Shown here: positions 55,405 to 58,759 of the stretch, one piece after another
How positions within the stretch are numbered: position 1 is the stretch's first letter
Layout: each line of letters begins with the position of its first letter
Assembly: GCA_944393315.1 (NCBI GenBank)
Contig: CALXZT010000001.1
Coordinates: 10,252 to 74,251 of the forward strand
From: an uncultured Clostridia bacterium
GTDB taxonomy: Bacteria; Bacillota; Clostridia; TANB77; CAG-508
Direction of reading: 5' to 3'
Length of the DNA: 64,000 nucleotides
Made by a program: the position numbers and the translations under genes
The notes under the pieces: model-generated
The model's database searches: none
What the model was told of the DNA's origin: nothing
Seen by the model: only the letters and a program-made list of their open reading frames with translations

Positions 55405-56433
55405 TTATTCTGCTACTTGGAATTGTAAGTTAAATGATATATCTGTTCCTGAAGCTATGTTTTCACAGTCAACGTCTTGTCCTTCAATCCACATATATAC
55501 TCTTACTTTGGTGATTCCAGCTGTTAATGAGAATATTTCTGTTTCTGGCATTATTCCTGAATCTGTATCTACTGATGTTCTATAGTTTGGTGTTATCTCT
55601 GCAAAATTATCTGTATCATTTCCATTATTTGTATCTATTAAATCTATTCCTGCATCTATTTGTTGTTTTATTCCATAATATGTTATTGGTGTTGCTGTGC
55701 CATCAGCTTTTGTCTCTATTCCATAGTTATCACGTGCATGAGCTACTGCTGCATCTGTGTGTAAGTTTGGATTTGGTTCCCATATGTAAACCGTTGATGC
55801 TGGATTTGCTACATAAGATTCATCTAAAAATGATGTTGCTCCTTTTAATCCTCTTATTGTTTCTAAATCTGTTCCTACTGGTTGTGTTCCTTGAATACAA
55901 AATGCTACACGTGACGCTTGTTTTATTCCTTTATCTGTGCTACCTTGTTTCATAACAACACTTGATGCTTCTGTTAATTTTAGTTTTGTATCATTATCTA
56001 CTCTTAAAAACATATCAAAAACTATATATTTTCCATCTGCATCTGCAGTTGGTGTTGCTGTTAGTTTGTAAGCTCCTCCGTCCAATTCATCAGCATTTAC
56101 AGAACCATAATACATTTTCATGTTTCCTGTAGCTTCATCTATTTCTCCAATTGTTGATACAGGCTCTATATTTGCTGGAAGATTATTAGTATGTCCTGAA
56201 TAACCTGTTAATATATCAGTGTTTTCGATTATTGATTTCCATGTTGTTGCATCTGTTGAAATTTGTAGACCATTTTGTGCCTCAATATGTACATCTAGTG
56301 AACTAACTGTTACGGTTTGGTTAGCTGTAAACCATGCATAAGTTGATGAAAATAATAGTATTGCTATTAATAATAATAATAATATTGATGATCTTAAATC
56401 ATATTTGTTTTTAGCTTTTGTTTTTTCACTCAT
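55405..56433 (-). CDS. secreted protein with SipW-cognate (TasA/camelysin-class) signal peptide: candidate major fibre or matrix subunit
   Basis: K-rich N-terminus + TM + STYAWFTANQT motif. Visibly higher GC and strong SD (GAGAGGGAAAAA) suggest high expression. C-terminal WIEGQDVDC motif shared with the paralogue. Confidence 0.65.
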   Translation of the reverse strand: MSEKTKAKNKYDLRSSILLLLLIAILLFSSTYAWFTANQTVTVSSLDVHIEAQNGLQISTDATTWKSIIENTDILTGYSGHTNNLPANIEPVSTIGEIDEATGNMKMYYGSVNADELDGGAYKLTATPTADADGKYIVFDMFLRVDNDTKLKLTEASSVVMKQGSTDKGIKQASRVAFCIQGTQPVGTDLETIRGLKGATSFLDESYVANPASTVYIWEPNPNLHTDAAVAHARDNYGIETKADGTATPITYYGIKQQIDAGIDLIDTNNGNDTDNFAEITPNYRTSVDTDSGIMPETEIFSLTAGITKVRVYMWIEGQDVDCENIASGTDISFNLQFQVAE

Positions 56434-56611
56434 TTTTTCCCTCTCTTCTAGTTATAGTCTAGATTTTAATAAAGCTATAACTTGTTATTTATTTTATGGC
56501 TAGAGTATATGACACTTTACAAGATATGTCAATACATGTTGAATAAATGTAACACAATTGTAATTTTGTTATTTTTTGTAATATTTTTGTATTTTTTTTG
56601 TAATATTTGTT

Positions 56612-57346
56612 TTAATTTGTTATATGTTCTTCTGTAATATCCATGTGCATTTTCATCTCTCCTCCTATCAATGTATCTACACAGTCTGGGTCATCACCTT
56701 CTAAATAAATTACAATCGTAAACTTATCTATTTCTCCTGGTTCAAAATTTTCTCTATGCTTTATAACAAGCTCTAAATCTGAGTGAAATTTTTCTGTATC
56801 TAGTTCTGGTTCTCCAGTTGTTTTATTAGCTTTAGAATATATTGTTCTTTCACCATTTCTATATATCATTATTCGAATTGCTTCATCTACATTTTTTATG
56901 ATATCATCTGCCAATATTTCGTACCAATAGTTTATTGTTTCACTTCCTTTATTCTCAATATAAAATGTATATGCTAAATAATTATCGCCATTGTGGCTTC
57001 CTTCTCCCATTTCATCTATGTTTTCTGGTAGCCATTTTACTGATATGTTATCCATAAATTCAACCTTCGTGGCTTTTAAAATTTTCTTTTCTTCTTTGTC
57101 AGCTAGTTTTTCATACATTATTAAGCCACTTTTTTGAGAAAATTCCGGGTCTAAAGTTATGGTAAAATAACCAGTTTCATATATTACCTTTAAAATAAAA
57201 TATGTTACAATTAAAAATAGTAACATTATAAGTAATCCTGTTTTTACTGTTTTTATACTTTTTTCTCTTTTTCGAATTTTTTCTGAGTTTAATTTTATTT
57301 TGTCCTTCGAGGTTTTGATGTCCTTTTTTATAGGTTCTTTTACCAT
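56612..57346 (-). CDS. paralogous SipW-cognate secreted protein
   Basis: TM + ETGYFTITL, NKGSETINYWYEI and C-terminal YLEGDDPDC motifs. Start set at ATG after SD AAAGGTGA. Confidence 0.55.
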   Translation of the reverse strand: MVKEPIKKDIKTSKDKIKLNSEKIRKREKSIKTVKTGLLIMLLFLIVTYFILKVIYETGYFTITLDPEFSQKSGLIMYEKLADKEEKKILKATKVEFMDNISVKWLPENIDEMGEGSHNGDNYLAYTFYIENKGSETINYWYEILADDIIKNVDEAIRIMIYRNGERTIYSKANKTTGEPELDTEKFHSDLELVIKHRENFEPGEIDKFTIVIYLEGDDPDCVDTLIGGEMKMHMDITEEHITN

Positions 57347-57499
57347 AATTATCACCTTTCTTTTCGATTTTGCATGAAACTTTTTTCCAATTAATTAAGT
57401 AATAAAATCTTAAAGTCAAAAACATTGTTCATTTATATAAGACTCACTTGATTTATGACACATTCTATGATAAACTAGGAAAAAACAAAAGAGGTTTTT

Positions 57500-58096
57500 A
57501 TGAAAAATCGCAAAAAAATTTTATTATTGTTAATAGGTATATGTATTTGTATTTTACTATTTTTCATTGTACAAATTTATGCTAAATATATAACATCAAC
57601 TGAAGGAAGCACTTCTCTTACAATTGCAAATTGGAACATTAAAGTTAATGATTTATCTATAAAAAATAATACTGACATTTCTAACTCAATTGTTCCAGTG
57701 TTTCCTGGTAATGAGCATATTTCTAGTAATGTTATTGCTCCATCAGCTGAAGGATATTTTGATTTAAATTTAGATTTTTCAAGTGTTGATGTTTCTTTTA
57801 AATATGAAATAACAGCTATTGCTGATGAAAATAGTTCAGTTCAAGATTTAGTGTCTATAGGTTATTCAATTGATGATGGTGAAAAAATCATCTTTGAAAA
57901 TTACAACACACCTATAACAGAAGTTATTGAACTTTCAAGTAATATAAAAACTAGAAAAATTAGAATTTATATTTTGTGGAATGATAATGAAGAATCTCAA
58001 ACTATGAATAATAGTTCTGATACTCTTTCTACAATAACCGAAAATCCCGCTCTTTTTCATGTTAATATTTCATTTACACAAATAACAAATATTTAA
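57500..58096 (+). CDS. paralogous small secreted protein with SipW-cognate-like signal (IYAKYITST)
   Basis: 198 aa. FPGNEHISSNVIAPSAEGYFDLNL and C-terminal RIYILWNDNEE. The only plus-strand gene in the cluster. Confidence 0.55.
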   Translation: MKNRKKILLLLIGICICILLFFIVQIYAKYITSTEGSTSLTIANWNIKVNDLSIKNNTDISNSIVPVFPGNEHISSNVIAPSAEGYFDLNLDFSSVDVSFKYEITAIADENSSVQDLVSIGYSIDDGEKIIFENYNTPITEVIELSSNIKTRKIRIYILWNDNEESQTMNNSSDTLSTITENPALFHVNISFTQITNI

Positions 58097-58165
58097 AATG
58101 AAACAACAATCTGATATTTTTATTAAGCTTACTGTTCTAAAACCAGTAAGCTTTTTTATGTACTT

Positions 58166-58759
58166 TTAGTCAGCTAATTGCTGTGCTACTAATTTTATTT
58201 CTATCTCTATGCTTTTTTCTCCTGGGTTTGCTAGATAATATTCATATGCCTTATTTCCCCATAAAGTATCTAACTCATCATTTCCAGATTCAAATGGCCA
58301 TTTTACTGTTACCAAAAACGAGCCTTCTCCTATTCCCTGTGATAGTTTAGTATCATCTTTGCTAATATTGACTTTAAATGGATAATCTGAACTCATCTTT
58401 TTTTCTAATTCTTCTGATGTTATGTTTTCTCCTAACTTATAAGATTCATCTAAGAATTTTATTGATAATATTTCATAAGTTAATTCTGCTTTAATTTCTC
58501 CTTTATTTTTTACTGTTATGTTTTTTTCTACAGTTTCCATCCCCGGATATATTCTATCTATTTCTATTATAATATTCGTAGATGTGTCTTGTTCTCCAGT
58601 AGAAAATTCAACATTCCATGAACTAACATGAGCAGATAAACTAGAAGATACTCTTGTTGCATATATAAACCATGCATATGTGTTAAAAATAAGTAGTAAA
58701 ATTAAAAATATAATATTTCTTATTTTTATTTTTTTTACTATTTTTACTATTTTATTCAT
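58166..58759 (-). CDS. camelysin/TasA-like small secreted protein
   Basis: NTYAWFIYATRVSS signal motif. YPGMETVEKNITVKNKGEIKAEL resembles the TasA PGD...F.N.G.L core. Start overlaps the SipW stop (ATGA). Confidence 0.6.
   Translation of the reverse strand: MNKIVKIVKKIKIRNIIFLILLLIFNTYAWFIYATRVSSSLSAHVSSWNVEFSTGEQDTSTNIIIEIDRIYPGMETVEKNITVKNKGEIKAELTYEILSIKFLDESYKLGENITSEELEKKMSSDYPFKVNISKDDTKLSQGIGEGSFLVTVKWPFESGNDELDTLWGNKAYEYYLANPGEKSIEIEIKLVAQQLAD

Follow-up and report, generated by a model that had tools for sequence, protein, structure and literature searches.

Do four neighbouring genes for secreted proteins, which lie beside the gene of a SipW/archaeal-type signal peptidase in an uncultured gut bacterium, belong to one system, and what would such a system build? 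The question is raised by a stretch of 64,000 nucleotides from an uncultured Clostridia bacterium (contig CALXZT010000001.1, positions 10,252 to 74,251; hereafter the window, meaning the whole stretch that was analysed), in which a preliminary description singled out the genes that we call p342, p247, p198, and p197. All four open reading frames (ORFs) are present as described, next to the peptidase gene, and the genes are real. What the description overlooked is a larger cluster of at least 17 genes that includes SipW paralogs, more substrates, and an McrB/McrC-like pair. We propose, with moderate confidence, that this cluster builds a SipW-processed, multi-subunit fibre on the cell surface and that p342 is its major subunit. 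As a whole, the cluster is best read as a SipW-dependent fibre system of a widespread and so far uncharacterised variety, to which an McrB-type GTPase is coupled.

Secreted proteins and SipW paralogs of the cluster

The cluster extends from position 44447 to past the window end at 64000 and continues for approximately 3.3 kb in L081, a contig from the same strain that was used for the genes beyond that end. In order of transcription on the minus strand, it starts in L081 with a dead SipW paralog (181 aa), p206, an active SipW paralog (176 aa), and p192b; it continues with p314, p332, p507, p382, sipW, p197, p198 (on the opposite strand), p247, and p342; and it ends with a 36-aa ORF, p525, a giant protein of 2651 aa, p195, and p186 (Table 1). 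Gene order is kept across dozens of gut Bacillota species. Among the relatives compared, which are the best 80 of 382 confirmed loci (one genome per species, seeded only on p342), the synteny p332-p507-p382-sipW-p197-p198(-)-p247-p342-p525-giant is found in 40-66 of the 80, with p247 immediately upstream of p342 in 66. About a dozen loci (L020, L027, L046, L055, L058-L060, L070, L075, and L080) feature a shorter arrangement, p247-p342-(small ORF)-p525-S26-giant.

At least eight proteins of the cluster carry a signal-anchor followed by (T/I/V)-(Y/F)-(A/G) and an aromatic-x-(S/T) motif: p342, p247, p198, and p197; p206, p192b, and p314 (past the window); and the giant. Their N-termini have the layout of type I signals, and the translations show no C-terminal LPXTG. 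Likewise, sortase/LPXTG and type IV pilus families (prepilin peptidase, PilB-type ATPase) found no match among the cluster proteins scanned. The N-terminus said to be common to the first four proteins is indeed present in all of them as a lysine-rich region, a hydrophobic stretch, and an aromatic motif (TYA-WF in p342 and p197, IYA-KY in p198, and IYETGYF in p247). In p247, it takes the form of a long basic N-terminus and a transmembrane (TM) segment with no obvious -3/-1 cleavage site. The description of these proteins as cognate to SipW is supported by TIGR04088 (SipW-dependent-type signal peptide), which is matched by 44 of 47 p342-family members (E<=1, best E 6.2e-5). The p342 of the window scores 14.8 bits, below the 19-bit cut-off of this hidden Markov model (HMM), and p247, p198, p197, and the p206 members gave no HMM match; in these, the motif was seen by eye.

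Five SipW-type paralogs are encoded in the cluster, three with the catalytic Ser/His motifs and two without. The former are the peptidase next to p197, p195, and the 176-aa paralog of L081 (S26-176), which scores 76.1 bits with TIGR02228 (cut-off 51.85 bits) and has the SM-P and THR motifs. The latter are p186 and L081's 181-aa paralog (S26-181); with Ser and/or His missing, they are pseudo-peptidases. In 30 of 30 loci, the dead paralog that precedes p206 has none of the three catalytic motifs.

The four proteins had been taken for paralogs, a view that the absence of significant pairwise similarity was to count against. Pairwise, such similarity is nearly absent: blastp E-values are 0.01-0.3, mostly over short segments, and the best blastp/phmmer match is p198 with p197 at 24 bits, followed by p342 with p197 at 16 bits in the TYAWF region. 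Profiles built from 38-82 orthologues each and compared with hhalign do recover links. Here, p198 matches p197 (157 columns, E 6.5e-5) and p206 (99.9%) over the full length, and p206 in turn matches p197 (95% over 151 columns) and p192b (93%). The match of p342 with p206 and p197 covers the N-terminal 37-70 columns only (94%), and TM segments inflate hhalign scores of such N-terminal matches. No full-length profile match was found between p247 and the small proteins. The C-terminal 40-44 columns contain no TM segment and give 96.8% for p342 with p247 (E 2e-10), 84.8% for p342 with p198, 96% for p198 with p206, and 77% for p206 with p197. The claim of four paralogs is thus correct for p197 and p198, which are homologous over their full length, and too broad for p342 and p247, which are tied to them by short end modules only. 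Judged by these profiles, there are two groups: a small-subunit family (p197, p198, p206, and p192b) and the larger p342 and p247. Pfam and NCBIfam scans of 44 members of the p206 family gave no recurrent family.

The C-terminal strings quoted in the preliminary description are found 30-45 residues from each C-terminus, and the profiles show that they belong to a homologous module. In p342 and p247, this module has the form W-x-EG-x-D-x-DC, such that (W/Y)(I/L)EGDDPDC of p247 is homologous to YMW(I/V)EGQD-DC of p342. A single invariant Cys stands in its acidic loop (C323 of p342, in EGQDVDC, and the corresponding residue of EGDDPDC in p247) and does not occur in the small subunits; binding of a metal or a covalent link between p342 and p247 are possible roles. 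The most conserved blocks of the p342 family are residues 31-40 (identity 0.85) and 311-330 (0.82-0.88), relative to a mean of 0.53. The p197 family follows the same pattern, with the N- and C-terminal motifs most conserved.

Wherever the p198 gene sits between p197 and p247, it is encoded on the opposite strand. A GC-rich hairpin at about 58127-58155 follows p198 and also lies just downstream of the convergent p197.

Expression signals around p342

The proposal that p342 is the major, abundant subunit is supported by a conserved promoter and terminator of its own; the codon and Shine-Dalgarno (SD) arguments first offered for it fail. In a 6-kb scan, no other site matched the sigma-70 type as well as this promoter, which lies approximately 70 nt upstream of the gene. 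Where related loci leave an intergenic gap there, p342 is likewise preceded by TTGACA or a hexamer with one mismatch, mostly with 17-nt spacing. Downstream, p342 is followed in 85% of 79 loci by a hairpin whose energy is -8 kcal/mol or stronger, whereas comparable hairpins follow five other cluster genes in 0-7% and p197 in 27%. No RNA element was detected in the leader of p342 by Rfam and tRNA scans. From these signals, p342 is probably expressed separately and strongly.

The GC content of p342 (0.324) is higher, as had been stated, and the accompanying claim of GC-ending codons is incorrect. The values by codon position are 0.446 (GC1), 0.405 (GC2), and 0.120 (GC3), the last among the lowest in the window. 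The excess at positions 1 and 2 therefore reflects amino-acid composition. Codon bias was rejected as a proxy for p342 expression because neither GC3 nor C-ending two-fold codons are elevated. The SD sequence, described as strong, is GAGAGGG (-8.9 kcal/mol); it ranks 13 of 45 genes and equals that of sipW.

Direct repeats had also been reported in the promoter region. They are real (56577-56605) and were understated; they belong to a larger conserved array, in which 4-6 TTACA/TGTAAT boxes are spaced at about -20, -31, -49, -60, and -71 relative to the -35 hexamer. Most of the 29 related upstream regions examined keep this array. On the plus strand, its unit TGTAAT-N5-TGTAAT fits the WalR consensus TGTWAH-N5-TGTWAH (PMC9210968), with an exact match at 56548-56564. 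In 1.35 Mb of related-locus DNA, 42 of 80 exact matches to the consensus fall, in one orientation, within 350-bp windows upstream of p342, an enrichment of 53-fold among loci that are not phylogenetically independent, so that the Poisson P value is too favourable. The repeat is not significant within the 64-kb window alone and derives its significance from conservation across species. We suggest that the array is probably bound by an OmpR-family (WalR-like) activator. The OmpR-family regulator encoded in the window at 22360-23055 scores 200 bits against YycF, for which the cut-off is 340.

This regulator is encoded at 20341-23974 (minus strand) together with a 670-aa histidine kinase. The pair is nearest to VanRS and WalRK-like, with all scores below cut-offs, and its genes are bordered by those of a monofunctional transglycosylase and a GT2 glycosyltransferase. 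It is a candidate envelope-sensing system.

The GTPase pair, further genes, and the host

Upstream of sipW, p507 and p382 form an McrB/McrC-like pair. The membrane-anchored GTPase p507 matches McrB in the PDB (4e-4), NF008457 (5.5e-5), and the candidate defence family PDC-M26A (5.6e-33), and it alone was matched in a PADLOC scan. Its signature GT(I/V)NNDDST is invariant and can be read as NxD+D, the form given for CoCoPALM (PMC11090510), and also as NxxD. A TM segment at residues 55-80 is followed by a heptad-like stretch, and weak matches to FtsL_2 (0.017) and FtsL_Actino (0.089) were obtained. The McrC-like p382, directly downstream, has an acidic, helical-looking C-terminal half and is directly followed by sipW, an order kept in about 45 loci. 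Pfam and family scans detected no nuclease or nucleic-acid-binding domain in p382 or p507.

The giant protein features a conserved signal-anchor with an I(K/R)AF(T/R)(D/N)SRA motif and is rich in Gly/Asn repeats. A Pfam scan gave no match, and its N-terminus aligns with the small-subunit profiles in the signal region alone. It may be an adhesin or a component of the tip. The p525 gene comes after p342 in most of the cluster's arrangements; sequence and profile searches found no relative of it in Pfam or the PDB. Between the two genes, a small ORF of the ELIxLYxxIxxFLxFLEKE type with an acidic tail is present in most of 43 related loci examined. Together with p332, for which a sequence/profile search of the PDB was also without match, p525 and the 36-aa peptide lack a hydrophobic segment and are presumably cytoplasmic. 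A C-terminal stretch of p332, GYK-x-x-V-LDNSFE..., resembles an EAL domain. PF00563 is weakly matched by 2 of 24 p332-family members (best 0.012), and the C-terminus may be a degenerate domain related to cyclic di-GMP.

Table 1. Features of the p342 cluster. Positions refer to the window unless L081 is named; a slash within a motif marks the putative cleavage position.
Feature	Position	Strand	Description
p186	44447..45007	-	SipW-like pseudo-peptidase; TIGR02228 55.5 bits; Ser replaced (NDLME), THR His motif deleted
p195	44979..45566	-	SipW-type peptidase; SipW model 103.6 bits, TIGR02228 94.5; Ser (NSMEP), His (THR), and KGD intact
Giant protein	45580..53535	-	Secreted, 2651 aa; in 46 loci
p525	53563..55140	-	Conserved, no hydrophobic segment; in 53 loci
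36-aa ORF	55160..55270	-	Conserved (MKLDKTETSKLIDLYIKIQDFLNFLEKEKKENKKEQ); called in L081-L083; between p342 and p525
Terminator after p342	55344..55381	-	Intrinsic; 11-bp stem, -14.5 kcal/mol, U-rich tail
p342	55405-56433	-	Candidate major subunit, 342 aa; SipW-type signal ...SSTYA/WFTAN...
p342 promoter	56532-56504	-	TTGACA-17-TATACT, 11/12 matches
TGTAAT (= ATTACA) box array	56548..56608		About 11-bp phase; upstream of -35 hexamer
p247	56612-57355 or to 57346	-	GTG start, 247 aa; or ATG start, 244 aa (start called in L081)
p198	57500-58096	+	Small subunit, 198 aa; QIYA/KYxTS
p197	58166-58759	-	Small subunit, 197 aa; NTYA/WF; start overlaps sipW stop
sipW	58756-59334	-	SipW/archaeal-type signal peptidase I, 192 aa; TIGR02228 81.6 bits; SipW model 3.7e-16; GSMRP, THR
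p382	59336..60484	-	McrC-like; DUF2357, Pfam PF09823 3.2e-12; in 45 loci
p507	60546..62069	-	TM, heptad-like stretch, McrB-like AAA+ GTPase; GISGTGKT
p332	62078..63076	-	Conserved, no hydrophobic segment; faint EAL-like C-terminus
p314	63090..64000, off window end; L081 4726-5670	-	SipW-type substrate (...VFG/RYVTNS); 314 aa in L081
S26-181	L081 2402-2947		SipW paralog upstream of p206; catalytic motifs missing

The window carries dnaK, dnaJ, metK, and spoIVA and is chromosomal; its host is a spore-forming Bacillota bacterium from the gut that has not been cultured. In a megablast search, 45000-64000 matched no plasmid or phage, so the region is not a known mobile element. The p342 family comprises more than 2766 homologues without any Pfam domain; searched exhaustively (E<=1e-3), it amounts to 3142 clusters at 50% identity. 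It occurs in hundreds of species of gut metagenome-assembled genomes labelled Clostridia, Bacilli, Erysipelotrichaceae, and "Tenericutes".

Elsewhere in the window, a SAM (S-adenosylmethionine) riboswitch (RF00162, 75.2 bits) at 36360-36461 on the minus strand lies upstream of metK (35140-36249). A 202-aa ORF at 9391-9999 (minus strand) has a GC3 of 0.42 versus about 0.15 for every other gene of the window. It has no Pfam or NCBIfam match and may be foreign DNA or not a real gene.

A proposed surface fibre, its rivals, and known systems

If the cluster builds a fibre, its subunits would be exported by Sec, and the active SipW paralogs would cut them behind the motif's small residue. The cut would free the highly conserved N-terminal segment. 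Together with the equally conserved module of strand, acidic loop, and strand at the C-terminus, this segment would let the subunits polymerise as in TasA/BsaA, where the N-terminal segment serves as donor strand (PMC11580942). The bulk subunit would be p342, with its own consensus promoter, the phased box array as a probable site for a WalR-like activator, and a conserved terminator that would limit read-through into downstream genes. The protein p247, whose gene usually adjoins p342, has the C-terminal module in common with it and shows no evident cleavage site; its likely role is that of an initiator or anchor close to the membrane. Minor subunits would be supplied by the 190-206-aa paralogs, with the giant as a candidate distal adhesin and the dead SipW paralogs as chaperones. 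The McrB/McrC-like pair may serve to link GTP hydrolysis in the cytoplasm with assembly, export, or its control.

The AlphaFold2 (AF2) models are consistent with such a role of the N-terminus. The p342 model is confident and beta-rich (pLDDT, for predicted local distance difference test, 85.9; predicted template-modelling score, pTM, 0.82), and its most conserved N-terminal block falls in a segment (residues 30-46, pLDDT <50) that is disordered in the monomer. The p197 model is of moderate quality (pLDDT 73.4, pTM 0.58) and is disordered at residues 34-49. Foldseek returned nothing significant from the PDB or BFVD. The sole filament protein among the top matches of p342, at rank 3, was the 0406 thread of S. 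acidocaldarius (7pnb), which is not significant (E 0.08, probability 0.35, template-modelling score 0.18/0.31). The PDB sequence/profile search with p342 gave no match.

Several observations count against the fibre proposal. Polymerisation of p342 by strand exchange is proposed by analogy with TasA/BsaA, and cleavage positions in the SipW-type signals were assigned by eye. The high expression of p342 is read from promoter and terminator signals only, with no support from codon usage. McrB/McrC genes are absent from the 9 kb upstream in the dozen or so loci of the shorter arrangement, so the GTPase module is maybe dispensable or encoded elsewhere. In addition, the relation to TasA/camelysin that the preliminary description put forward for alignment and structure prediction was not demonstrated by Pfam, profile-profile comparison (<=31%), or Foldseek. 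PF12389 (Peptidase_M73), which all true TasA relatives carry, matched none of the four proteins (E<=0.1) and none of 44 p206-family members (E<=10), and the p342 and p197 models have no convincing TasA or pilin match in the PDB by Foldseek, the TasA-like fold (5of1 / 8aur) included. TasA was represented by a single sequence, checked against PDB 8aur, and by a 44-sequence family profile, and all comparisons with either stayed below threshold. With this profile, hhalign gave 9% for the p206 family, 0.1% for p342, and 0.5% for p197; a merged small-subunit alignment reached 31% (E 5e-4), which is sub-threshold and colinear. The sub-threshold alignments pair the T(W/Y)A-F N-terminus, the motif PG(D/M)...N-G, and, at the C-terminus, a strand and acidic loop that lead to ...Q(W/Y)-G. 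Because they are colinear, distant homology to TasA/camelysin is plausible, though unproven.

Could the same proteins form something other than a fibre? A non-filamentous surface coat processed by SipW, whether an S-layer-like lattice or matrix/adhesion proteins, would make p342 an abundant coat protein and the others accessory. The strong promoter and terminator of p342 would suit it, as would the beta-rich, jelly-roll-like body of this protein, with only weak Foldseek matches of capsid type, the absence of a pilin or TasA fold match, and the giant repeat protein encoded nearby. We nevertheless judge a coat unlikely. The most conserved parts of the proteins are the N-terminus that is disordered in the monomer and the C-terminal module, both common to the paralogs, and this is typical of strand-exchange subunits rather than of proteins in a lattice; moreover, a major subunit accompanied by several small paralogous minor subunits resembles pilus and fibre operons. 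The idea that the four genes are unrelated neighbours, their motifs being generic signal-peptide or low-complexity features, draws on the weak pairwise blastp values and on the inflation of N-terminal hhalign scores by TM segments. It is very improbable given the profile matches of p198 with p206 and of p206 with p197, the C-terminal match of p342 with p247 outside any TM segment, and the conserved synteny.

The McrB/McrC-like pair allows for a further reading, in which the cluster is an McrBC-derived conflict or defence system akin to CoCoNuT and the secreted proteins and peptidases are envelope sensors or effectors, for example by changing the surface against phage. In its favour are the matches of p507 to PDC-M26A and McrB, DUF2357 in p382, and the predicted immune systems of which the McrB clade concerned otherwise consists (PMC11090510). 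We consider defence improbable, however, since neither p382 nor p507 has a detected nuclease or nucleic-acid-binding domain; the cluster is chromosomal, syntenic in many species, and composed mostly of structural-looking secreted proteins; the WalR-type box array points to cell-envelope regulation; and the minimal version exists with no McrBC genes nearby. An extension of the fibre proposal is put forward tentatively, as a doubtful possibility: that the cluster represents a new class of monoderm surface filament, its assembly driven or gated from the cytoplasmic side by a membrane-anchored McrB-like GTPase hexamer and an McrC-like activator, with active and inactive SipW paralogs dedicated to it as enzymes and chaperones, a fold without solved relative, WalR-type control of the cell envelope, and a wide distribution in uncultured gut Bacillota of humans and animals. 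A motor of the restriction-enzyme kind would then have been recruited to build pili.

The p342 family numbers more than 3000 clusters, yet it has no Pfam family, solved relative, or experimental data. If its members form a fibre, these poorly understood and mostly uncultured gut bacteria probably use it as a major structure of adhesion or biofilm, which would make it a prominent surface antigen. A conserved link to an McrBC-type GTPase would be the first non-restriction function of this NTPase family, the pairs of active and dead SipW paralogs would be a model for signal-peptidase homologues turning into assembly chaperones, and the WalR-type box array provides a concrete regulatory hypothesis.

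Among known systems, the cluster can be compared with the biofilm fibres of TasA/CalY/BsaA (tapA-sipW-tasA of B. subtilis and sipW-bsaABC of C. perfringens). Both encode a dedicated SipW-type peptidase with its substrates, whose signals end in T-(W/Y)-A followed by x-F-x-(D/N/S/T), as in TasA (TWA/AFND). Both have an N-terminal segment that is disordered in the monomer and, in the roles proposed here, one major subunit plus minor or anchor proteins. In contrast, the present cluster lacks PF12389 and any significant profile or fold similarity to TasA; it features five SipW paralogs (two of them pseudo-peptidases), at least eight substrates, a 2651-aa partner, an McrB/McrC-like pair, and, in p342 and p247, a Cys that is invariant within the C-terminal motif. 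Archaeal threads (Saci_0406, 7pnb) and bundling pili (AbpA) are likewise fibres that depend on Sec and signal peptidase I and are complemented by donor strands, as proposed here; they differ in that p342 has no sequence similarity to the threads and no significant structural match.

The pseudo-peptidases have a counterpart in streptococcal sortase pili, where SipA/LepA are inactive signal-peptidase homologues encoded in the pilus locus that act as assembly chaperones. By analogy, p186 and the 181-aa paralog of L081 may be comparable, as they are likewise dead and encoded in the cluster, whereas there is no sortase or LPXTG here and the paralogs are of SipW/Sec11 type rather than LepB type.

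Finally, the arrangement of p507, p382, and SipW appears to fit the CoCoPALM type. Bell et al. (eLife 2024, PMC11090510) named CoCoPALM in one paragraph, as a clade whose McrB-like GTPases carry a fused FtsB-like TM/coiled-coil segment, and deferred its full description; our search of the library at hand returned this naming paragraph only and no follow-up. Shared traits are an McrB-like GTPase with an N-terminal TM and apparently helical segment, in Bacillota; a DUF2357-containing McrC homologue without nuclease; and associated genes of the signal-peptidase family. That account does not cover the giant protein, pseudo-peptidases, regulation, or variants of architecture reported above, nor the substrates, which are hitherto undescribed.

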